DNA from: Microcystis aeruginosa NIES-2549
Lineage (GTDB): Bacteria; Cyanobacteriota; Cyanobacteriia; Cyanobacteriales; Microcystaceae
DNA: 32,000 bases
Direction: 5' to 3'
Assembly: GCF_000981785.2 (NCBI RefSeq)
Contig: NZ_CP011304.1
Coordinates: forward strand, 60,001 to 92,000
The notes below the pieces were generated by a model that was not told where the DNA came from, did not search any database, and saw only the letters and a list, made by a program, of their open reading frames with translations. Position numbers and translations under genes: made by a program. This document shows positions 10,400 through 32,000 of the stretch, one piece after another. How positions within the stretch are numbered: position 1 is the first letter of the stretch; each line of letters opens with the position of its first letter.

Positions 10400-10726
10400 A
10401 TGAGTTCTTCCATCAAAGTTATTCAACCATCGGGTATTTTAGATGGCAACCAAGCCAGCCAATTTCGCCAAGAAATTGCCGAAGCCGTGCGGGGAGGTTC
10501 AGAGGTTATTATCGTTGATTTCAAGGATGTCACCTTTATGGATAGTTCTGGTTTAGGGGCGCTAGTTTTATCCTTAAAAACCGTGCGTTCTGCGGGGGGT
10601 AAACTATTGATCTGCTCGATTAATGATCAGATAAAAATGTTATTTGAATTGACCGATATGGATCGAGTTTTTGAAATTTTTAATAACCGAGAAGAATTAG
10701 AACAAATAATCTCGGAAATTAATTAA
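10400..10726 (+). CDS. STAS-domain anti-sigma-factor antagonist (SpoIIAA/RsbV-like)
   Basis: 108-aa ORF with the typical STAS sequence, including the phosphorylatable-Ser region FMDSSGLGALV. Confidence 0.9.
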   Translation: MSSSIKVIQPSGILDGNQASQFRQEIAEAVRGGSEVIIVDFKDVTFMDSSGLGALVLSLKTVRSAGGKLLICSINDQIKMLFELTDMDRVFEIFNNREELEQIISEIN

Positions 10727-11859
10727 TAAAAATCCACCTGCATGATCGAAAGATCATCCTTAAAATTACCATCGAATTGTAAAGCTTGAATTTCTTCAAT
10801 AAAATTATTGAGATTTTTGGCGGAATTACAGTGATAATTTCGCAAAGATTGAATAAATTTCTCTAGTCCCCACATCCTACCATCAGCACAATCGATCTCG
10901 TAAATTCCATCGCTAAAAAGATAAAGGCTACTGGGTAAATTCAGGCATTTAACCTGATTAATATATTCCGCTTCTGGAAACATCCCGATGGGAAAACCGG
11001 GGGCTTTCAGTCTGGTTTCCATCACCTGGCCAAAAGGTTTTTGAGTCAGGAGAACTGCCGGGGGATGACCGGCACTGGCATAGGTTAACTGTTGTTGTTT
11101 CCGATCATAAATTCCGTACCAAATAGTAAAATATTTATCATTCCTAGGACTGATTTGATACACTTGATTTAACCCCTGTAAAACCTGATTAGGTTGATAG
11201 TAATTCACCTGACTTAAACCACGAGAACGGAGTAAATTAATCACCGAAAGAGAGGGTAAAGCCGCTCGCAAACCATGGCCCGCCACATCTAAAAGATATA
11301 ACACCAAATGGTCATTATCTAACCAATAATAATCAAAGCCATCCCCCCCCAATCGACGAGAAGGAAGGAAGCGAAAATCGATAGCAAGTTTTGGAGAAAT
11401 GAAAGGCTCTGGTAACAGCGATCGCACATATTCCGCCGCTTCCGCTAACTCCATTTCTAGTAATTGTTTTTGCGCTCGCAGATCATGACTTAATTGATGC
11501 AAACGCATTCCCGCCCGCACGCGCGCTCTTAACTCATTAATCTCGATCGGTTTACATAAAAAATCATCTGCCCCCGCATCCAATCCCTTCACCCGATCCC
11601 CCACCGATCCCAAAGAAGTTAAGAGGATAAAAAAAGTCGTTGACAGTTGGGGATTGAGCTTAATTTGCCGGCAAACTTCCAACCCATCGATCCCCGGCAT
11701 CATCCAATCACAAATAATCATCGCCGGTTTTATTTGCCCCGCTTGCTTTAATCCTTCTTCCCCATCACTGGCAACAAAAACCTCGTATTCCTTCTGCAAA
11801 GCGCGGCTCAAAAACGTTTGAATTACTCCATCATCATCAATTACTAGAATTCGTACCAT
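10723..11859 (-). CDS. response-regulator receiver domain fused to PP2C/SpoIIE-type Ser phosphatase (RsbU-like)
   Basis: 378-aa ORF with a REC domain (ILVIDDD...ICDWMMPGIDG...K) followed by a PP2C/SpoIIE region (GGDGFDY..., DVAGHG, FSDGIYE). Its 3' end overlaps the STAS gene 3' end by 4 nt (convergent). Confidence 0.9.
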   Translation of the reverse strand: MVRILVIDDDGVIQTFLSRALQKEYEVFVASDGEEGLKQAGQIKPAMIICDWMMPGIDGLEVCRQIKLNPQLSTTFFILLTSLGSVGDRVKGLDAGADDFLCKPIEINELRARVRAGMRLHQLSHDLRAQKQLLEMELAEAAEYVRSLLPEPFISPKLAIDFRFLPSRRLGGDGFDYYWLDNDHLVLYLLDVAGHGLRAALPSLSVINLLRSRGLSQVNYYQPNQVLQGLNQVYQISPRNDKYFTIWYGIYDRKQQQLTYASAGHPPAVLLTQKPFGQVMETRLKAPGFPIGMFPEAEYINQVKCLNLPSSLYLFSDGIYEIDCADGRMWGLEKFIQSLRNYHCNSAKNLNNFIEEIQALQFDGNFKDDLSIMQVDFY

Positions 11860-12029
11860 CTTTTTTGTGACTCGACTATCTCAATCTTACTGCTTACACT
11901 AGAGGGGAGTGGACGACTTTGCTTGTACCTCAAGACAGGATTAAATCCAGAATCGAGCTAATACATCAGTCATAGTTTGGGAAAAATGGTATAACTTCTA
12001 GCGTAAGGCATTGCAGAGGTAAACCGGGG

Positions 12030-12473
12030 GTGAAGATTTCTTTTCAGGTAGATAGCGATCTCAGGTCCTTAGATACCGTTTTAAAGTATTTTGAGCAACT
12101 CGAACCGGCGGGCATTCCCCAAAAAGACTGGCTCCAGTGTCAGCTTGCTCTTGCCGAAGGTTTTACCAATGCTGTCCGTCACGCTCACCGACACCTCCCC
12201 CCCGAAATCCCGATCGAGATCGAGATCGATATTACCCGATCCCAGATGGAACTTCGCATCTGGGATCGGGGTTCCGTCTTCGATTTAGAGGGCTTTATCG
12301 AGAAAAACGCCCATCTTCGCCATAGTTTCTCCGGTCATGGGCAAGGACTGCCGATCCTCCAAAAAATCGCCGATCAACTCAGTTATACTCGCAGCGAAGA
12401 TCAGCGCAACTGTCTGTTAATTATTAAACAATTTTCCCGCCATGAATCCGATCGCGCCCCTCGTTTCTCCTAG
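12030..12473 (+). CDS. anti-sigma regulatory factor / HATPase_c Ser-protein kinase (RsbW/SpoIIAB-like)
   Basis: 147-aa ORF with a GTG start and GAGG about 10 nt upstream. It has an N-box (EGFTNAVRHA) and a G-box (GHGQGLPIL). Confidence 0.85.
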   Translation: MKISFQVDSDLRSLDTVLKYFEQLEPAGIPQKDWLQCQLALAEGFTNAVRHAHRHLPPEIPIEIEIDITRSQMELRIWDRGSVFDLEGFIEKNAHLRHSFSGHGQGLPILQKIADQLSYTRSEDQRNCLLIIKQFSRHESDRAPRFS

Positions 12474-18798: not shown

Positions 18799-20487
18799 AT
18801 GAAAAGAAAAGAGCTTAAAATCGGTCGCCGCTATTCTGGCAAATCCTGGCAAATATTTGTAATTATTGCCTTCATCGCCGCCGCTCCCTTCGCTATTTTT
18901 TATCTGATTGCCTTGGCTTATCTTTGGCAAGGCGATCAACTTTTGGCCGCGGGGGAGAAGGAATCGGCTCTGTCTGCTTACCAAACAGTTTTATCTTTTC
19001 ACGAAAATTCAGTCCAAGCCCATATAAAAATCGCTCAGGTCTTACAAAGTCAAAAACGCTATTCTGAAGCCTTACAAGCATATAATCGTGGCTTTATCAT
19101 TAATGATAAACCACCGATGGAACCCTCCCTAAGTAATCATTTAGTCGCTTTGGGAGATATTTTCGCCCAAGAGGAAAAATGGTCAGAGGCGATCGATGCT
19201 TACCAAAAAGCAATGATCATTAAACCAACTTTTAAAGGGCAATTTCAGCTAGGAAAAGCCCTTTATAGTTTACAACGTTGGGATGAGGCGGCGAAAGCTC
19301 TGCAAGCAGCGGTTTTTCTCGATCCTAGTCAGGGAAAAGCCTATTTTTATCTGGGAAAGGCCTACAGTGAACAGCAACTCTGGCAAGAGGCCAGTTATGC
19401 CTATCAGCAAGCTCTAGAATTGATACCTAGTCAGGGTGAAATATACAAAAAATTAGGAGAAACCCTAGCAAAACAGGGAAAATGGGAGCAAGCAGAGCAA
19501 ATATATCGACAGGCTCTAATTTACTCCCCTAAAGATGGGGATATTTATAATTATTTAGGGAAAGCTTTAGCGGAACAGGGAAAACTAGGGGAAGCCATGG
19601 CAGTTTTTCAACAGGCACGCCAAATTAGCCCCAAAAATGCCGAGATTTACGAAAATCTCTGTTATACCTATATCGATAGTGGTCAGATCGATGAGGGTCT
19701 AAATTGGTGTCGGCAGGCCGTAGAAATTGATCCCAATTTATCAGAAGCTAGATTTATTTTACAGGAAATCCAACGGGGGCGATTAATTCACGACAATCCC
19801 GAATTATTAAAAATGCCAGAGATAATTCCCAGTGTTAACAGTGATCCTCTGGTGAATTTAAAACGCTCAATTGTTAAAATTGTCATTCGCGGCAAAAATA
19901 ACAATGGGATCGGCACTGGTTGGTTATTAAAACGAGATCAAGATAGAGCTTGGATCGTGACTAACCGTCATGTGGTGACGAATTCCCGTCAGGAAATCGA
20001 TGCAGGAGCGCGCATTTTTGTCGAGTATTATAGCCAACCCCCCCAGGGAAAAATTCGCAAGCGTTCAAAAGCTAAAATTCTCCACACTACCCCCCCTAAC
20101 GATTGGCTCGATTTAGCAGTATTAGAGGTAAAAAATCCCCCGCCAGATTTAAAACCTTTAGCTTTAGCACCCCTACCAATTGCCCCTAATCAACCGGTAA
20201 TCTCGATCGGTAATCCTTTTAATCAAAAAGATTGGACTGTCAGCAAAGGCACGGTTAATGATAATAACGAAAAATCCTTAAGTTTGTCCATGTTTGTCGT
20301 TTCTGGACAGTCGGGAAGTCCAGTTTTAAACGATAAAAATCAAGTGGTGGGAGTGATTTCCCAAGCGAGTTTATTTTGTGATAATCCCTCCACTCCTAAA
20401 CCCCTAGAAAATGCCGTTAGATTGGGCTGCGGTTTAGCGATTCCCATTGACAGAGTGCGAGAAAGGTTAAGGGAGTGGCAATTATAA
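18799..20487 (+). CDS. membrane-anchored TPR-repeat protein with C-terminal trypsin-like (S1/S1C) serine peptidase domain
   Basis: 562-aa ORF with an N-terminal TM helix (WQIFVIIAFIAAAPFAIFYLIALAYLW) and about 8 TPRs. The C-terminal domain has an apparent triad in TNRHVV (His), DLAVLEV (Asp) and GQSGSPVLN (Ser). Confidence 0.85.
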   Translation: MKRKELKIGRRYSGKSWQIFVIIAFIAAAPFAIFYLIALAYLWQGDQLLAAGEKESALSAYQTVLSFHENSVQAHIKIAQVLQSQKRYSEALQAYNRGFIINDKPPMEPSLSNHLVALGDIFAQEEKWSEAIDAYQKAMIIKPTFKGQFQLGKALYSLQRWDEAAKALQAAVFLDPSQGKAYFYLGKAYSEQQLWQEASYAYQQALELIPSQGEIYKKLGETLAKQGKWEQAEQIYRQALIYSPKDGDIYNYLGKALAEQGKLGEAMAVFQQARQISPKNAEIYENLCYTYIDSGQIDEGLNWCRQAVEIDPNLSEARFILQEIQRGRLIHDNPELLKMPEIIPSVNSDPLVNLKRSIVKIVIRGKNNNGIGTGWLLKRDQDRAWIVTNRHVVTNSRQEIDAGARIFVEYYSQPPQGKIRKRSKAKILHTTPPNDWLDLAVLEVKNPPPDLKPLALAPLPIAPNQPVISIGNPFNQKDWTVSKGTVNDNNEKSLSLSMFVVSGQSGSPVLNDKNQVVGVISQASLFCDNPSTPKPLENAVRLGCGLAIPIDRVRERLREWQL

Positions 20488-26613: not shown

Positions 26614-26955
26614 GTGATTAAATATACAGATAATTTTGCCTGTTTATAGTTCTGATGATCGAATATGAGTCGGGGGACCTCCTGTTATAAAGGGCATCTC
26701 AAAAGCTATTGACAATTGGCCAATTTTGTGATCCGCGTGGGCATTTTAAGTGATACCAGTCAATCAGAATAGTTACGAACTCGACCTATTTGGTCGATTG
26801 TTGCTTAACAATTGAGATGGCAAATTCTACTCAAATATGCCTGAATTGCCCTCTGGGTAGGCAACCCACATAAAGTTCATTTTGTCAAGGATTGTTAGGA
26901 TGCGCTTACCCTGTTTGCTAGAGTGGGAGCATTCCATTTGAGATAATAATTTTTT

Positions 26956-27153
26956 TCAAGTAATAGGGTGGCCGCTTCTAAGGGAAATGGGCCCCTTTAA
27001 TACGACCATAATATCAATATCTGAGTCCTCATTGGCGTTACCCCGCGCTTGTGAACCAAAAAGGATGAGTTTTACTAACCGTTTTCCATAAAACTTTGCT
27101 AATTCTTGGCGAAATTCTTGTAGTATAGGCATTAGGGTTTGTAATTGAGCCAT
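26956..27153 (-). CDS. minimal nucleotidyltransferase (MNT-type antitoxin-like), probably 3'-truncated or decaying
   Basis: 65-aa ORF carrying the NTase motif LFGSQARGNANEDSDIDI (GS...DxD), but shorter than typical MNT proteins. No HEPN partner ORF was found in the 342 bp downstream. Confidence 0.55.
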   Translation of the reverse strand: MAQLQTLMPILQEFRQELAKFYGKRLVKLILFGSQARGNANEDSDIDIMVVLKGPISLRSGHPIT

Positions 27154-27338: not shown

Positions 27339-27560
27339 TCATCGGTTTTCTTCTCGCCATGCTGCTTGACGGATAGATTTAGGGGTGATATTTCTGTCTT
27401 CCCACAATCCTGCCAGGGCAAAGAATTCTTGCTCGTTATCAGATAATGTTGTTTGATCTTCGATGATTTCTACAGAGTCAACAAAATCTAAAGCAGTTAA
27501 AATTTTAGAGAGTGTTTCTGCTTTTTCTTGGTCACGAATGTGTACGATTAGTTGTTTCAT
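27339..27560 (-). CDS. small hypothetical protein, antitoxin-like, with no adjacent partner
   Basis: 73-aa ORF whose C-terminal LAGLWEDRNITPKSIRQAAW motif resembles small proteins I recall next to PIN toxins in cyanobacteria. That resemblance is unverified. Confidence 0.5.
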   Translation of the reverse strand: MKQLIVHIRDQEKAETLSKILTALDFVDSVEIIEDQTTLSDNEQEFFALAGLWEDRNITPKSIRQAAWREENR

Positions 27561-27587: not shown

Positions 27588-28082
27588 TTAATGATCATTG
27601 TCTAATTCTGTTTTTAGCCAATTAAGAATCGGAGAACTAATACGAATTCCATAATTAACTAACTGTTGTGATAAATCTAAAATTTCTTGTTTAGATAGAT
27701 AACCTGCATAAAAACCAACCAAGAGAATTCCTAATGTTCCTTTGACGGTTAATTCCATAGCTTTGGCAACTCTTCTTGCTAATTTCTCATCTATAATTAC
27801 CCAGTCTAGTTTAATTGAAATTGCCAAGAGAATAACTTCTAATTCTCCTCGATCTAATCCTAGTAATAGCGGTTCAAGAGGAGATGATGATGCAACTTCT
27901 TGAACTTGAATCCAATTGGCATTTTTGAGTTCTTTTGCCCCCGGTTTATTATCTCCAGCGATGACAATTTCTTGATAAACTGCCCAAGGAATAATCACTT
28001 CATTAAATAGCTGATTAAGAAGATCTAATTGATTAATCAAAGATAAGGCGATGATCGGTGTAGAATTAACAATTATCTTCAT
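27588..28082 (-). CDS. DUF3368 / PIN-like predicted nucleic-acid-binding protein (putative toxin)
   Basis: 164-aa ORF whose N-terminus (IIVNSTPIIALSLINQLDLLNQLF...VIIPWAVYQEI) is typical of COG2405/DUF3368. It overlaps the upstream UPF0175 gene by 17 nt. Confidence 0.75.
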   Translation of the reverse strand: MKIIVNSTPIIALSLINQLDLLNQLFNEVIIPWAVYQEIVIAGDNKPGAKELKNANWIQVQEVASSSPLEPLLLGLDRGELEVILLAISIKLDWVIIDEKLARRVAKAMELTVKGTLGILLVGFYAGYLSKQEILDLSQQLVNYGIRISSPILNWLKTELDNDH

Positions 28083-28356
28083 TCTCTTGGATTTTTTGGG
28101 CTAATTTACGGCTGGTTTGTATTTCTGATTCCCATTCTTCTGCTGTGTAATCAATAATGGAAAAACCATACTCAGAGAGAAGTGTATAAAATGTATATTT
28201 ATCGCATCCTAATACTTGTGCGCCAATTCCTGCTGAAATTTTTCCTTCTTGATAAAGATGCCCTAATGTATAAATTATGACTTTACGAGAGAATGCTTCT
28301 TTTTCTTCTCTGGCAGCAATGAGGAGTTCTTCGGGAAATGTTACATTAATGCTCAT
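28066..28356 (-). CDS. UPF0175 family protein (putative antitoxin paired with DUF3368)
   Basis: 96-aa ORF. LYQEGKISAGIGAQVLGCDKYTFYTLLSEYG is typical of UPF0175 (COG2886). Confidence 0.75.
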   Translation of the reverse strand: MSINVTFPEELLIAAREEKEAFSRKVIIYTLGHLYQEGKISAGIGAQVLGCDKYTFYTLLSEYGFSIIDYTAEEWESEIQTSRKLAQKIQENEDNC

Positions 28357-28438: not shown

Positions 28439-28708
28439 CTATATTGTTCTCTTTAGTTGTTTATAAATTTCATCATCGTTTCGTTTGTCAATCAGCAAGA
28501 TTTCTAGTGTTTGCTCCTCAACACGATAAACGATTCGATATTCACCAATATCGGCTCTATGATAGGAGTATCCTTTTAACTTTAGAGAATCTTGGGGATA
28601 GGGATTTGTTCTCAGTTCGGTTATTTTTGTGGCTACTTGTTTGGCGTGTTTATCTGGCAGTTTTTTTAAGCGTTTAGTTGCCTGTCGAGATAGGTTAATC
28701 TTAAGCAT
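28439..28708 (-). CDS. RelE/ParE-family type II toxin
   Basis: 89-aa ORF containing ...LKGYSYHRADIGEYRIVYRVEEQTLEILLIDKRNDDEIY, typical of the RelE/ParE superfamily. Its ATG overlaps the Phd stop (ATGCTTAA, 8-nt overlap). Confidence 0.85.
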   Translation of the reverse strand: MLKINLSRQATKRLKKLPDKHAKQVATKITELRTNPYPQDSLKLKGYSYHRADIGEYRIVYRVEEQTLEILLIDKRNDDEIYKQLKRTI

Positions 28709-28949
28709 TTAAAATTTCTGACAGTAAAGCCTCACTTTCTGTTGTTCCGATAAAACCTTCTTGATGAGCTTTTTCTGCCTGTAAAGCCAAAAGTTGATTT
28801 TCTAACTCGGAAAATCTCTCAAATTCCTCGATTGACAGCACGACTGCAACATTACGTCCCTTTTTTGCTATCTTTACTGGTTCTCTTCGAGCCAAGTCTA
28901 ACAGTTCGCCAAAGCGATTTTTTGCTTCTGAGGCTCCTAATGTTTTCAT
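28701..28949 (-). CDS. Phd/YefM-family type II antitoxin
   Basis: 82-aa ORF with the N-terminal Phd/YefM signature (SEAKNRFGELLDLARREPVKIAKKGRNVAVVLSIEEFE). Confidence 0.85.
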   Translation of the reverse strand: MKTLGASEAKNRFGELLDLARREPVKIAKKGRNVAVVLSIEEFERFSELENQLLALQAEKAHQEGFIGTTESEALLSEILNA

Positions 28950-29016: not shown

Positions 29017-32000
29017 TCACCGCCACCAGCGGCTGACTTCTCTAATTGCTTGATGGATTTCTCTTAAAGCGACCTCTCCCCCAAAATGAAGGATTAAAGG
29101 CGCTAAGTTGGGAATAGTTTCGAGGAAATTAGGACGAGTGAGAGTACCCAAAGCCTGAAGGACATCTTGCCAGAAAGATAAGTCAACATTAGCAGGGGTT
29201 AAGGTGGCTGTTAATGCTTCTAATGCCTCTGCACGAGATTCTTCAGACCCAATCCCTCTGGCAATTTCTAAGGCTTCGGGTAACACTTCAGGTAAATGGG
29301 GAGCTAACCGTGTCAATGCCCTTGCACGCAAGTATTCATACTCAATCCCTCTGGCAATTTCTAAGGCTTCGGGTAACACTTCCGGTAAATGGGGAACTAA
29401 ATTGGTCAATGCCCATGCACGGTTATCTTCATCCCTAATCCCTCTGGCAACCGCTAAAGCTTCGGGTAACAAACTGACCGGTAAATGGGGAGCTAACTCT
29501 CTCAATGCCTCTGCACGGTTATCTTCATCCCTAATCCCTCTGGCAACCGCTAAAGCTTCGGGTAACACTTCCGGTAAATAGGGAGCTAACCCTGTCAATG
29601 CCCTTGCACGGTAGTATTCAGACCCAATCCCTCTGGCAATTTCTAAGGCTTCGGGTAACACTTCCGGTAAATAGGGAGCTAACCCGGTCAATGCCCTTGC
29701 ACGGTAGTATTCATACCCAATCCCTCTGGCAATTTCTAAGGCTTCGGGTAACAAACTTTCCGGTAAATGGGGAGCTAACTCTCTCAATGCCTCTGCACGG
29801 TAACGGTAGGACAAAATCCCTCTGGCAATTTCTAAGGCTTCAGGTAATAAACTGGGCAAATGGGGAGCTAACCCTGTCAATGCCCTTCCACGGTCGTATT
29901 TATCCCAAATGGCTCTGGCAATTTCTAAGGCTTCGGGTAACACTTCAGGTAAATAGGGAGCTAACCCTGTCAAGGCTTCTGCACGAGAAAATTTATCGTC
30001 AATGACTCTGGCAAGTTCTAAGGCTTCGGGTAACACTTCAGGTAAATAGGGAGCTAACCCGGTCAATGCCCTTGCACGGTAGTATTCATCCCTAATCCCT
30101 CTGGCAACCGCTAAAGCTTCGGGTAACAAACTGACCGGTAAATAGGGAGCTAACCCGGTCAATGCCTCTGCACGGTCGTATTCATCCCTAATCCCTCTGG
30201 CAATTTCCAAGGCTTCGGATAACACTTCGGGTAAATAGGGAGCTAACCCGGTCAATGCCCTTGCACGGAAGTCTTCAACCCGAATCCCTCTGGCAGCTTC
30301 TAAGGCTTCGGGTAACAAACTTTCCGGTAAATAGGGAGCTAACCCTGTCAATGCCCTTGCACGGAAGTTTTCAACCCGAATCCCTCTGGCAGCTTCTAAA
30401 GCTTCGGGTAACACTTCCGGTAAATAGGGAGCTAACCCGGTCAATGCCCTTGCACGGTAGTATTCATACCCAATCCCTCTGGCAATTTCTAAGGCTTCGG
30501 GTAACACTTCCGGTAAATAGGGAGCTAACCCGGTCAATGCCCAAGCACGGTTGTATTCATACCCAATCCCTCTGGCAACTTCTAAGGCTTCGGGTAACAC
30601 TTCAGGTAAATGAGGAACTAACTCAGTCAATGCCCATGCACGGTCAGATTTATCCCCAATCCCTCTGGCAATTTCTAAGGCTTCGGATAACAAAGTAGAA
30701 GTAAGATAGGGACTAATTGCTGTTAATCCTCCGGCTTGCTTCTCAGAATCTGGATTTTGCCGTACATAAGCCAAACCCTGAGCAGGTGTCCAGATTTCAT
30801 GTTTAATCAGTGCCGCAATTAATTCTGGTGGAATATTAGTCGCCAAACTATTAAGAGAAGTGGTGATTAAAGCATAACGCACCTGTAACCCCATAGACTC
30901 ACTCTTGTTCTCAATAAAATGCTCCTCCGCCAGTTGCCAAGCCCGGGAAACATCCTTAATAAAAACTGCTGTTTTCCCTTCCCTTTCACATTGACTATAC
31001 CAACCATTATGACCTTCTGCGGTTTCTTCCCTCAGTAATAGATGAATCTGGGCTATCTGTCCCGCTTTTTCCAAATGCCAGAGCAATTGATTATAAATAT
31101 AGCCATCATCCTCTAAACTGTGCCAATTTGATCCCCCTAAATCCCCCTTACTAAGGGGGACTTCCACCTCTTTTCCCCCCTTTTCAAGGGGGGTTAGGGG
31201 GGATCTCTCCTTTTCAAGGGGGGTTAGGGGGGATATCTCCTTTTCAAGGGGGGTTAGGGGGGATATCTTAATTTGTCTTTGATACCGTTGTAAAAGTTGC
31301 CCATGCGCTTCAGAAATCGACAAACCTAACCCCGGTAATCGATAATCCGTTTCAGTATTAGGAGACGCTAGGATCAGATTTCGGGCTAAATCATGTAACA
31401 AATCATGGACCCGATAACTCGTTAATAGTTCACTAGAAACCCCCGTTAATAATAAAGCTTTACCCCGTAAATATCTTAAAGTTTGCCTCGCTTCTCTAAC
31501 CGGACAATCCCATAAAGTCGTCGCCATTTTTTCGGTAATGGTAACATCATCGGGTAACACCCCTAACCAGCTAAATTGTCTCAATCTTTGCCCATTTAAC
31601 CGCTTTAAACTGAGATTAAAGCAAGCAATTAAACTATAATGTTTTCGTTTTTCTTCATTGACAGTATCTCCAGCTTCCAAGCGATCTAAAATTTCTAAAT
31701 GAGCGATTTCTGCTCGTAAATCTTCGATTAATTCAGCCCAAGGAATCCCATCTTCAATTTGTGCCGCCGTCAACTCCAAAGCTAAGGGTAAATAACCGAC
31801 AATTTTGGCTAATATTTTGGCTTGTTTCTGATCTGCTAAATTTAATTCATGCTTTAAATAACCCGTTAATAAGGCTAAAGATTGGCTTTCCGTCATCACA
31901 TTCAAATCATAACGAATTGCTCCTTTAACGGGAACTTCCCTAGTGGTTACTAATAATTTACATTGATTTACTGCTACTCTAAAAGGATCAATATCTTCCA
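29017..32000 (-). CDS. NB-ARC (APAF-1/R-protein type) STAND NTPase, 5'-truncated by the window edge, with a C-terminal array of 31-32-aa alpha-solenoid repeats
   Basis: The frame stays open upstream of the track's TTG 'start' at 31905, to the window end (...EDIDPFRVAVNQCKLLVTTREVPVKGAIRYDLNVMTESQSLALL). NB-ARC motifs seen: LLVTTR (sensor-1/RNBS-B), GYLPLAL (GLPL/GxP) and VHDLLHDLA (MHD-like). A helical HD2-like region (DDGYIYNQLLWHLEKAG) follows, then 16 repeats and a 58-aa unique tail. Confidence 0.85.
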   Translation of the reverse strand, partial: EDIDPFRVAVNQCKLLVTTREVPVKGAIRYDLNVMTESQSLALLTGYLKHELNLADQKQAKILAKIVGYLPLALELTAAQIEDGIPWAELIEDLRAEIAHLEILDRLEAGDTVNEEKRKHYSLIACFNLSLKRLNGQRLRQFSWLGVLPDDVTITEKMATTLWDCPVREARQTLRYLRGKALLLTGVSSELLTSYRVHDLLHDLARNLILASPNTETDYRLPGLGLSISEAHGQLLQRYQRQIKISPLTPLEKEISPLTPLEKERSPLTPLEKGGKEVEVPLSKGDLGGSNWHSLEDDGYIYNQLLWHLEKAGQIAQIHLLLREETAEGHNGWYSQCEREGKTAVFIKDVSRAWQLAEEHFIENKSESMGLQVRYALITTSLNSLATNIPPELIAALIKHEIWTPAQGLAYVRQNPDSEKQAGGLTAISPYLTSTLLSEALEIARGIGDKSDRAWALTELVPHLPEVLPEALEVARGIGYEYNRAWALTGLAPYLPEVLPEALEIARGIGYEYYRARALTGLAPYLPEVLPEALEAARGIRVENFRARALTGLAPYLPESLLPEALEAARGIRVEDFRARALTGLAPYLPEVLSEALEIARGIRDEYDRAEALTGLAPYLPVSLLPEALAVARGIRDEYYRARALTGLAPYLPEVLPEALELARVIDDKFSRAEALTGLAPYLPEVLPEALEIARAIWDKYDRGRALTGLAPHLPSLLPEALEIARGILSYRYRAEALRELAPHLPESLLPEALEIARGIGYEYYRARALTGLAPYLPEVLPEALEIARGIGSEYYRARALTGLAPYLPEVLPEALAVARGIRDEDNRAEALRELAPHLPVSLLPEALAVARGIRDEDNRAWALTNLVPHLPEVLPEALEIARGIEYEYLRARALTRLAPHLPEVLPEALEIARGIGSEESRAEALEALTATLTPANVDLSFWQDVLQALGTLTRPNFLETIPNLAPLILHFGGEVALREIHQAIREVSRWWR
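29194..30714 (-). repeat. intragenic tandem array: 16 units of 93 or 96 bp (31-32 aa; consensus EALEIARGI-xxxxx-RAxALTGLAPYLPEVLP)
   Basis: Units were counted from the translation (residues about 398-904 of the track ORF). A 106-nt perfect duplicate occurs at 29648-29753 and 30401-30506 (offset 753 nt = 8 units). Confidence 0.95.
31177..31266 (-). repeat. three tandem 30-bp G6-rich units inside the STAND ORF (encoding ISPLTPLEKE x3), adjacent to a 19-nt palindrome at 31142-31160
   Basis: Plus-strand units at 31177-31206, 31207-31236 and 31237-31266. The last two are identical (ctccttttcaaggggggttaggggggatat) and the first differs at 2 positions. Confidence 0.9.

Follow-up and report, generated by a model that had tools for sequence, protein, structure and literature searches.

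A probable NLR-like receptor gene of Microcystis with rapidly evolving helical repeats as its likely invader sensor

The stretch of Microcystis aeruginosa NIES-2549 DNA that was analysed, 32,000 nucleotides long and referred to below as the window, ends within a long gene on the minus strand. The frame runs from position 31998 to a stop codon at 29019-29017 and comprises 993 codons without an internal stop, in line with the claim of an earlier note on this DNA that a single long minus-strand open reading frame reaches the window edge. This open reading frame (29017..32000) encodes what is probably the C-terminal two-thirds of an NLR-like receptor. It represents the 3' part, stop codon included, of a gene whose predicted product is a STAND protein combining a protease, an NB-ARC module and repeats. 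Full-length relatives measure 1432-1789 aa. Judging from the orthologues, about 1.1 kb of 5' sequence, with the protease, Walker A and Walker B, would lie past position 32000. The closest allele, that of M. aeruginosa NIES-87, is 93% (P0001) or 98% (L001) identical to the window gene.

Directly downstream, also on the minus strand, lie a Phd/YefM antitoxin gene (28701-28949, Pfam E 1.5e-15) and a ParE toxin gene (28439-28708, E 1.3e-9). They are followed on the same strand by an UPF0175 antitoxin (28066-28356), a DUF3368/PIN-like protein (27588-28082), a 73-aa ORF (27339-27560) and a truncated MNT nucleotidyltransferase of 65 aa (26956-27153), as assigned with Pfam. The gene order of this toxin-antitoxin block matches that of strain KW and of the Microcystis contig L093. 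The Phd/ParE pair does not belong to the receptor system, because it also occurs in strains without the NB-ARC gene. Of the defence-island context that had been proposed, the TA modules (Phd/ParE, UPF0175/DUF3368 and the truncated MNT) stand, but the remaining neighbours are housekeeping genes and there is no large island. Similarly, the description of the surroundings as an AT-richer block holds for the TA block at 27-29 kb, with a G + C content of 0.35, and not for the NB-ARC gene, where it is 0.40-0.475.

The first 212 residues of the fragment (31363..31998, minus strand) form the C-terminal half of an NB-ARC module, as delimited by motifs, by alignment to AfsR and by a family profile compared with Apaf-1. 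The three motifs that had been read from the sequence were mapped to an RNBS-B motif LLVTTR (fragment residue 15, 31956-31939), a GLPL-type motif GYLPLAL (residue 68, 31797-31777) and, in the winged-helix part, an MHD-type motif VHDLLHDLA (residue 197, 31410-31384). When the orthologue P0009 was searched against PDB sequences, all three aligned to AfsR, in which the counterparts of LLVTTR, GYLPLAL and VHDLLHD are LVTAR, GFLPLAI and FHDLV. By itself the window fragment gave only weak NCBIfam STAND matches (residues 9-209), because the P-loop half is absent from it. The orthologues scored 65 bits against Pfam NB-ARC (PF00931; cut-off 23.5), and P0009, P0001 and the gene of the syntenic contig L093 each had Walker A (GLGGIGKST) and Walker B (LLVVDDLW). 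In the PDB the family profile found AfsR (E 2e-36), Apaf-1 (E 7e-33) and plant NLRs (1e-9 to 1e-15). The profile searches thereby place the ATPase inside the STAND class, which the earlier note had assumed and whose failure it had regarded as fatal to its reading. The Avs, bNACHT and NLR models of PADLOC-DB 2.0.0 gave no matches for the window fragment, and full-length P0009 searched against the same database gave weak matches to RT-Protease_XI and HamA, confined to the protease region.

Between the NB-ARC module and the following domain lies a disordered linker insert (residues 246-288; 31135..31263, minus strand), recognised by Tandem Repeats Finder, inverted repeats and a pLDDT below 50. 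It consists of SPLTPLEKE three times over, followed by GGKEVEVPLSKGDLGG. At the DNA level a GATC-bounded palindrome with runs of G and C (31130-31205) is combined with a 30-nt tandem repeat in three copies (31179-31268). The copy number varies from 0 to 4 across Microcystis alleles, and the insert is missing from the family consensus of alignment A1, which consists mostly of non-Microcystis cyanobacteria. Residues 291-436 (30691..31128, minus strand) form an all-helical, Apaf-1 HD2-like domain, modelled by AlphaFold with a pLDDT of 85-96. The HD2-like assignment made earlier is borne out by the family profile, whose alignment with Apaf-1 runs as far as residue 504 of that protein, by Foldseek, which matched Apaf-1 (3shf) over 309 columns, and by Pfam APAF1_C, which is precomputed in many relatives and was found in P0227; the window fragment itself matched this model weakly (E 0.3).

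The larger part of the fragment, residues 437-938 (29185..30690, minus strand), is an array of repeats that would act as the ligand sensor. The unit map gave exactly 16 repeats with a spacing of 31 or 32 aa, the number and length reported in the earlier note. Tandem Repeats Finder detected a 93-nt period in 15.5 copies with 84% matches and a score of 1836, so the array is not due to chance. In the AlphaFold model (pLDDT 81 over the entire fragment, 91.5 over the repeats) each unit consists of two helices, one of 12 aa and one of 14 aa, and the units stack as an α-solenoid. A Pfam search of the window fragment at E<=1 matched no HEAT, ARM or TPR model, and the repeats matched no other Pfam model and no PADLOC model. 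The TPR models did match a positive control, the genuine TPR protein encoded at 18799-20487 of the window, down to E 2e-43. Assignment of the repeats to the TPR class was rejected, as their period is 31/32 aa, not 34, and no TPR model matched. The fold comparison by AlphaFold and Foldseek that had been suggested thus gave a confident solenoid of two helices per unit with weak PDB neighbours, and the description of the solenoid as unclassified was retained. The best structural matches (Ton1535, LGN TPR and HEAT proteins) reached a TM-score of 0.3-0.5; the HEAT proteins mTOR, karyopherins, CAND1 and VPS35 were among the matches at just 0.2-0.48, and TPR proteins did equally well. The array is closed by a conserved, non-repeat C-terminal segment of 55 aa (residues 939-993; 29020..29184, minus strand), modelled as two helices (940-950 and 955-991). 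It corresponds to the unique cap noted earlier, and in a 52-sequence alignment W943, R955 and W992 were invariant.

Units of one array share about 74% identity at the protein level and as much as 100% at the DNA level, units 3 and 11 being identical over their whole DNA sequence. Entropy and pN/pS pointed to unit positions 12, 13, 15, 16, 19, 23 and 27 as hypervariable. Positions 13, 15, 16 and 19 were the most variable, and were so across 28 non-Microcystis loci as well. Compared with the NIES-87 orthologue, the 112 hypervariable codons of the window gene carried 10 nonsynonymous and 2 synonymous differences, versus 2 nonsynonymous and 4 synonymous differences in the 387 framework codons (Fisher p = 1e-5), a pN/pS contrast that is crude and confounded by gene conversion among units. 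In the model the hypervariable residues make up one stripe, which covers the loop between the two helices and a single face of the longer one. The comparison of alleles suggests that units have been reshuffled within the array, and the fast-evolving helical repeats probably sense invaders.

The missing 5' part could be approached through orthologues. The contig L093 is fully syntenic with the window and 97.6% identical to it over 13.7 kb, and its gene is intact, encoding 1477 aa in the order trypsin-like serine protease, NB-ARC module (including Walker A and B), HD2, repeats and cap. The protease head of the orthologues matches Trypsin_2 at residues 18-185 and has the S1-type motifs TCRH, DIALVEL and GTSGS, which we take to be those of the S1 peptidase catalytic triad. 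About 118 nt upstream of the L093 gene, on the same strand, lies a gene of 100 aa for Trypco2 (PF19631, = Pepco; Pfam E 5e-24). Beyond the Pfam domain the Microcystis Trypco2 has a tail of 17 aa rich in Gly, Pro, Asp and Lys, IGKDGGPIKTGSDDIPD. A Trypco2 gene also adjoins the protease gene in Crocosphaera (L003) and Snowella (L004). Among 80 related loci it was found upstream of all four trypsin-headed members and of two CHAT-headed members, and upstream of none of the others. From these orthologues, the effector domain of the window gene is predicted to be a trypsin-like protease, paired with an upstream Trypco2/Pepco gene.

In other strains the same chromosomal site contains this NB-ARC gene with 15-29 repeats, IS-disrupted copies, other cassettes or none. 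The alternative occupants include a CHAT cassette and a version in which Trypco2 and the protease are retained but joined to another STAND sensor; in one allele of this kind Trypco2 is 99% and the protease 91% identical, yet the sensor is of an unrelated nSTAND5/TPR type. Six of the 11 Microcystis loci compared (10 plus L093) carry the NB-ARC gene. It is intact in five (L083, L085, L089, L091 and L093), and in all five Trypco2 lies upstream; in the sixth (L084) it is broken up by a Tn5-like transposase and further inserts. At a contig edge in NIES-87 (L001), the protease domain meets the end of a transposase at codon ~34. The final ~275 nt of the NB-ARC gene, cap included, persist in strains that have lost the rest of it. 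This remnant and the disruptions in L084 and NIES-87 indicate frequent decay at the site. The window copy, too, could therefore be dead, since its closest allele carries an IS inside the protease domain; it would then have the same architecture but be an inactive remnant, a decaying pseudogene whose 5' end past 32000 is IS-interrupted or truncated. We consider this unlikely: the 993 visible codons contain no stop or frameshift, the framework positions of the repeats are conserved with few nonsynonymous changes relative to NIES-87, L093 with its identical flanking synteny has an intact gene plus Trypco2, and only one of the six gene-bearing loci of the comparison is disrupted.

The N-terminal heads across the family comprise EAD4, CHAT/caspase, trypsin, TIR and PNP-type phosphorylase modules, and its members occur predominantly in colonial and filamentous cyanobacteria. 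AfsR is the top PDB sequence match and some homologues are named 'regulatory protein AfsR' by NCBI, as would fit a regulatory or scaffolding STAND (cf. AfsR, MalT) or a housekeeping HEAT-type scaffold without a role in conflict. A regulatory or scaffolding function of this kind is most implausible, given that there is no DNA-binding domain, that the heads of the relatives are proteases, TIR, EAD and phosphorylase, and that the gene is paired with a pro-toxin gene family. Because it is absent, replaced or IS-disrupted at the same site in many strains, the gene is not a housekeeping gene; the universally conserved scaffold that the earlier note had named as evidence against its reading is thus not what was found at this fixed locus. 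The swapped N-terminal modules, the variable fixed locus and the restriction of repeat variation to one stripe all favour the earlier interpretation as an NLR-like conflict receptor.

The gene arrangement resembles that of known defence modules. Pepco (Trypco1/Trypco2)-protease defence modules were predicted by Kaur et al. (eLife 2020, PMC7159879). Pepco forms a β-barrel pore pro-toxin that is toxic only once its C-terminal tail is cleaved; the cut is made by an Avs4-fused trypsin-like protease, activated by a phage portal protein, as characterised for the Streptomyces pair SsPepco-SsAvs4, and Pepco modules were reported to be prevalent in cyanobacteria (bioRxiv 10.1101/2025.11.14.688446). Shared with these modules are, in the Microcystis orthologues, the small Trypco2 directly upstream of a STAND protein with an N-terminal trypsin-like protease, the C-terminal repeat sensor, and a short Trypco2 tail with charged residues, Pro and Gly, the last a resemblance by sequence only. 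However, in SsPepco-SsAvs4, the one Pepco system studied by experiment, the STAND is of the Avs4 type with a portal-binding TPR-like sensor domain, whereas the Microcystis STAND is NB-ARC/Apaf-1-like with HD2 and its sensor is the hypervariable 31/32-aa solenoid. With Avs and bNACHT proteins in general it shares the tripartite logic of effector, STAND ATPase and repeat sensor and the modular heads including proteases, and recognition of a protein ligand followed by oligomerisation would be expected of it as well; it differs in matching no PADLOC Avs/NLR model and in having an ATPase of the NB-ARC clade.

The Apaf-1/NB-ARC clade is the lineage nearest to the eukaryotic apoptosome and the plant NLRs. 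Like Apaf-1, CED-4, plant R proteins (AP-ATPases) and AfsR, the Microcystis protein has RNBS-B, GLPL and MHD motifs, the order NBD-HD1-WHD-HD2 and a repeat sensor C-terminal of the ATPase. Unlike them it lacks a CARD, CC or TIR, its protease is fused and not recruited, and its sensor is an α-solenoid instead of WD40 (Apaf-1), LRR (plants) or TPR (AfsR); the SARP DNA-binding domain of AfsR is absent from the Microcystis family.

Microcystis forms toxic blooms in which strain turnover is thought to be phage-driven. We regard the window gene and Trypco2/Pepco, with a probability of roughly 0.6, as an NLR-like receptor with a protease-activated pore pro-toxin, presumably directed against cyanophages. 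The solenoid would use its hypervariable stripe to bind a foreign protein, most probably one of cyanophage origin. Binding would free the NB-ARC switch for ATP-dependent oligomerisation, as in Apaf-1 and Avs proteins, upon which the clustered N-terminal proteases would switch on and clip the charged, proline-containing C-terminal tail from Trypco2/Pepco. The trimmed β-barrels would permeabilise the membrane, so that the infected cell dies ahead of phage release (abortive infection) and clonal colony mates are shielded. Recombination among near-identical units and whole-cassette exchange at the locus may maintain diverse recognition specificities across the population.

A working NLR-like death switch might instead respond to a self/non-self or stress cue in Microcystis colonies, serving allorecognition or programmed cell death, as in fungal HET-type NLRs and the caspase-linked death proposed for bloom collapse. 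In fungal and some bacterial NLRs, internally conserved WD40, TPR and ANK repeats diversify via unit reshuffling (bioRxiv 10.1101/2020.01.06.895854). The Microcystis array is alike in its ~74% unit identity, its few variable positions and the strain-dependent number and order of units, but its 31/32-aa HEAT/TPR-like hairpin lies outside all Pfam models. High internal conservation with hypervariable positions, described in that study for fungal incompatibility NLRs and mentioned for bacterial NLRs too, would fit a non-phage trigger, as would the concentration of the family in colonial and filamentous cyanobacteria and the strain-to-strain polymorphism expected of recognition loci. Such a trigger nevertheless seems quite unlikely, considering that the experimentally characterised bacterial STANDs with a fused death effector all respond to phage proteins, the one tested Pepco-protease pair among them, and that a partner 'allele' gene is not evident at the locus.

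No new principle is involved: the architecture had been foreseen in the 2020 prediction, the work of 2025 demonstrated the effector logic, and these proteins already carry the label NB-ARC in databases. The evidence supports placing the window gene in a recently described kind of immune system, which makes the NLR-like conflict receptor more specific. If the anti-phage reading is true, the protease-activated Pepco pore mechanism extends to the Apaf-1/NB-ARC clade. The locus would then be a natural experiment in which one Trypco2-protease pair is joined to differing sensors or arrays of 15-29 repeats, so that a defined stripe of residues could be linked to recognition specificity.

The explanation would, if true, also draw attention to a large repeat family that escapes current domain libraries. 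It is possible, though doubtful, that the 31/32-aa solenoid represents a very large class of repeats in bacterial immune receptors that has gone unrecognised and that diversifies by unit reshuffling and gene conversion, in the manner of fungal NLRs or lamprey VLRs. In that case Microcystis populations would maintain a polymorphic, fast-changing repertoire of cyanophage recognition at one hotspot, and the array composition would predict the phages resisted by each bloom strain. The top PDB match of the repeats, both by profile (E 1e-8) and by Foldseek (E 3e-5), was Ton1535 of Thermococcus onnurineus (PDB 3zpj), an uncharacterised, stand-alone archaeal α-solenoid with irregular repeats. The two have the pattern A..I.d...Ra.aL..lA..L in common, but the TM-score is ~0.3 and the identity 16%. 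At E<=1e-30 the solenoid was found in about 1200 sequences, each representing a cluster at 50% identity, and the NTPases to which it is fused are of the NB-ARC, NACHT-like and KAP types.

On the minus strand, the frame read from 31998, where it runs off the window edge, was open for 993 codons and ended with a TAA/TGA-type stop at 29019-29017. The motifs listed in the earlier note were found at fragment residues 15 (LLVTTR), 68 (GYLPLAL) and 197 (VHDLLHDLA). Its count of 16 tandem repeats was exact (16 units, 31 or 32 residues apart), and the unique C-terminal cap that it described corresponds to a 55-residue non-repeat segment after the repeats. The fragment shared 93% identity with a 1291-aa Microcystis aeruginosa NIES-87 protein and 65-85% with dozens of other proteins of Microcystis, 1300-1600 aa long, which NCBI lists as 'NB-ARC domain-containing protein', 'trypsin-like serine protease' or 'apoptotic protease-activating factor 1 like protein'. 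All features upstream of 32000 in NIES-2549 were deduced from orthologues. In the full-length orthologue P0009 and the full-length relatives P0006 and P0025, the domain order was a trypsin-like peptidase (residues 18-185; Pfam Trypsin_2 and Trypsin), Walker A and B (GLGGIGKST and LLVVDDLW), and then the part visible in the window. The peptidase contains the S1-type motifs TCRH, DIALVEL and GTSGS, which, by what is generally known of S1 peptidases, would be the catalytic triad.

Pfam NB-ARC matched the full-length relatives with 65 bits (cut-off 23.5). Searching the PDB with the P0009 sequence gave AfsR (8.5e-22), Apaf-1 (4e-15) and also plant NLRs, and a profile of the 52-member family improved on this (AfsR 2e-36, Apaf-1 7e-33), the Apaf-1 alignment extending to residue 504, inside HD2. 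The PDB matches therefore make the STAND/NB-ARC assignment solid and support the HD2-like helical region, both in line with the earlier note. A Foldseek match to Apaf-1 (3shf), and APAF1_C on record for many relatives, support the HD2-like region further. That note had also pointed to Avs and bNACHT-type receptors. PADLOC-DB 2.0.0 matched neither the ATPase nor the sensor of the fragment and the full-length relatives with an Avs/NLR model, and the gene is therefore not filed as Avs or bNACHT.

The 16-unit array, anchored on EAL[EA]xAR, occupies residues 437-938 (30690-29185, minus strand). At the DNA level it has a 93-nt period with 15.5 copies and 84% matches (Tandem Repeats Finder score 1836), a signal far beyond chance. 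No Pfam repeat model matched the fragment at E<=1, and the TPR protein encoded at 18799-20487 in the same window, used as a control, matched TPR models up to 2e-43; this agrees with the proposal that the solenoid is unclassified and not of the TPR type. DUF4644, ELYS and DUF5112 gave sub-threshold, chance-level Pfam matches on the repeats of the fragment and were discarded, as were designed helical repeat proteins, the sole PDB matches in a single-sequence phmmer search of the repeats, which were judged compositional. Folding of the fragment with AlphaFold2 and a 52-sequence alignment, a check suggested earlier, gave a pLDDT of 81 and a pTM of 0.73 for the whole fragment and a pLDDT of 91.5 for the last nine units plus cap. 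In the model each unit pairs a 12-residue with a 14-residue helix, and the units stack as an α-solenoid. Foldseek returned generic solenoids only, at low TM-scores, both for the whole fragment (mTOR, karyopherins, CRM1, SF3B1) and for the repeat region (Ton1535, LGN TPR, VPS35, CAND1, Kap121). Ton1535 (3zpj) was also the sole natural protein that a sequence profile built from the repeats matched (E 1e-8), and a literature search on it found nothing. As no Pfam repeat model matched and the generic solenoids had low TM-scores, 'unclassified HEAT/TPR-like hairpin solenoid' is the honest description. The repeat family is large: of 1.84 billion cluster representatives searched, 1214 matched at E<=1e-30 and as many as 5063 at E<=1e-3. 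Among these matches, the repeats lie behind a head of DUF4062 and a NACHT-like (NPHP3_N) NTPase in the 3205-aa protein P0197 and beside a KAP NTPase in the 2205-aa protein P0189, and are therefore a sensor module common to several NTPase classes.

Twelve unit positions do not vary within the window array (L1, E3, A4, L5, A8, R9, I11, R17, A20, L21, L24 and L28), and positions 12, 13, 15, 16, 19, 23 and 27 have an entropy of 1.3-2.4 bits. Placed on the secondary structure of the model rather than on atomic coordinates, the hypervariable positions would fall in the inter-helix loop and on every fourth residue of the longer helix, forming one surface stripe. In the window, the DNA of unit 3 is 100% identical to that of unit 11, whereas the two differ from each other in NIES-87, which points to gene conversion. 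Crude pN/pS, computed over 43 distinct units of four Microcystis alleles, was 0.417/0.084 at the hypervariable positions versus 0.094/0.143 elsewhere, although any simple dN/dS reading is confounded by gene conversion between units. Compared with NIES-87, the 112 hypervariable codons had 10 nonsynonymous and 2 synonymous changes, against 2 and 4, respectively, in 387 framework codons (Fisher p = 1e-5 for nonsynonymous enrichment in the hypervariable codons). Arrays of other strains have 15-29 units (29 in L091) and quite different hypervariable 'words', with flanking DNA 97-98% identical. The median within-array identity was 0.74 (32 loci of the family), and positions 13, 15, 16 and 19 were also the most variable in 28 non-Microcystis loci. 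This variation fits the regime of 'high internal conservation' that has been described in the repeats of fungal NLRs and noted in those of bacterial ones (10.1101/2020.01.06.895854). Neither the annotated ORFs of the window nor the Pfam annotation precomputed for the Microcystis loci included a reverse transcriptase, the enzyme of DGR-type diversification.

The names Trypco1 and Trypco2 were given to domains that co-occur with trypsin in NTP-dependent conflict systems (Kaur et al., eLife 2020, PMC7159879); a 2025 preprint (10.1101/2025.11.14.688446) renames them Pepco. According to the latter, Streptomyces Pepco forms SDS-stable β-barrels of 9-10 subunits; the Avs4 trypsin-like protease, activated by a phage portal protein, cuts a tail of ~2 kDa, rich in charged residues and proline, off Pepco after a conserved Ile, and only precisely truncated Pepco is lethal to cells, apparently via membrane permeabilisation. 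In Microcystis strain KW, a 99-aa Trypco2 protein is encoded directly upstream of the protease-NB-ARC gene. Look-up of a truncated MNT protein of the window yielded a syntenic contig (L093; BJCJ01000012, assembly GCA_009811855.1), which matches the window at 97.6% identity across 13.7 kb and has exactly the same gene order (queA, TPR-trypsin gene, gcvT, NFACT gene, proS, TA modules). Its receptor gene is intact (1477 aa), and a 100-aa Trypco2 gene (Pfam E 5e-24) lies 118 nt upstream on the same strand. Beyond the Pfam domain, the C-terminus of Microcystis Trypco2 reads IGKDGGPIKTGSDDIPD, comparable to the cleaved tail of Streptomyces Pepco. Trypco2 was present upstream in 6 of the 80 related loci listed from species-representative genomes, and these were exactly the protease-headed ones among the 80 (4 trypsin, 2 CHAT).

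Contigs with an identical downstream Phd antitoxin were compared over the site from pdxH/scpA to the Phd-ParE pair, and this proved to be a hotspot of variable content. Four loci (L083, L085, L089 and L091) contain Trypco2 and a protease-NB-ARC gene of up to 1789 aa. In L086-L088 (5527-9837) the site holds a shortened 85-aa Trypco2 with a different C-terminus, COP23 and a CHAT protease of ~860 aa, and L090 has other small genes in place of Trypco2 and a protease/STAND cassette. In L092 (5625-9750), Trypco2 is followed by the same trypsin domain, here joined to an unrelated nSTAND5/TPR protein. Identity to the NB-ARC allele is 99% for Trypco2 and 91% for the protease, and similarity ends at residue 225, which amounts to exchange of the sensor while the effector pair stays constant. 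Strains that lack the receptor gene retain its last ~275 nt. Elsewhere the gene is broken: in L084 (2442-9100) a Tn5-like transposase splits it, together with several ORFs that have been inserted, and in NIES-87, the closest allele, the end of a transposase gene lies inside the protease domain at the contig edge (L001, 1-130). IS inactivation appears frequent at this locus and, because it has struck the closest allele, some weight has to be given to the NIES-2549 copy being dead as well, although we consider this unlikely. Being absent, replaced or broken in other strains, the gene cannot be the housekeeping scaffold, conserved in all strains, that the earlier note had named as refuting its proposal. 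An AfsR-like regulatory role is very improbable, because a DNA-binding domain is lacking, death effectors form the heads, and strains can do without the gene.

A two-gene abortive-infection module of receptor and Trypco2 is the best-supported reading of the architecture, partner gene and diversification demonstrated here. By analogy with the Apaf-1/Avs paradigm and the Pepco preprint (10.1101/2025.11.14.688446), a foreign protein would be bound by the solenoid, the NB-ARC module would then oligomerise, the fused proteases would be activated by proximity, and cleavage of the Pepco tail would produce a pore and cell death. A trigger other than phage, in the form of allorecognition or stress-induced death in colonies, is a less probable alternative. 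Cyanobacterial AP-ATPase-protease fusions were known already, as were Trypco-trypsin pairs (2020) and the Pepco mechanism (2025), and the NB-ARC label of the relatives is already in databases; not yet catalogued are the repeat class with its hypervariability and the exchange of cassettes at the Microcystis site.

Between the winged helix and HD2, the receptor gene carries an in-frame linker insert (31130-31268, minus strand). It consists of a GATC-bounded 76-nt imperfect palindrome of G5-6/C5-6 runs and a threefold 30-nt tandem amplification of one palindrome arm, and encodes SPLTPLEKE three times followed by GGKEVEVPLSKGDLGG; the encoded insert is predicted to be disordered. Microcystis alleles have 0-4 copies; the family consensus, to which other cyanobacteria contribute most, has none. 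Outside the receptor gene, neither the window nor ~250 kb of Microcystis loci contained a copy of the G/C-run palindrome. Could the insert be a small mobile palindrome?

The AT-richer, TA-packed block proposed as a defence island was recovered in part: the TA block has a GC content of 0.35, but that of the gene itself is 0.40-0.475 and, as the window outside the TA cluster contains ordinary cellular genes, the island is small. No tRNA gene, as an integration landmark, was found in the window. A truncated 65-aa MNT-type nucleotidyltransferase antitoxin (26956-27153, minus strand, with the adjoining 26614-26955) lacks a HEPN partner. At this site strain KW has a 108-aa MNT and a 125-aa HEPN; in the window and in L093-L095, proS follows the truncated MNT instead, and this junction marks a rearrangement or deletion breakpoint. 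A 73-aa ORF (27339-27560, minus strand) without a Pfam match is kept beside UPF0175/DUF3368 in nearly all Microcystis loci examined, and may be an unannotated antitoxin-like component. The TPR protein at 18799-20487 (plus strand; 562 aa, about eight canonical TPRs followed by a Trypsin_2 domain) is a second, unrelated trypsin-domain protein in the window. Finally, a STAS anti-anti-sigma-like gene (10400-10726, plus strand), a response-regulator/SpoIIE phosphatase gene (10723-11859, minus strand) and a HATPase_c_2 anti-sigma kinase-like gene (12030-12473, plus strand), assigned by size and order relative to the annotated syntenic loci L084 and L091, together look like a partner-switching module (10400-12473).
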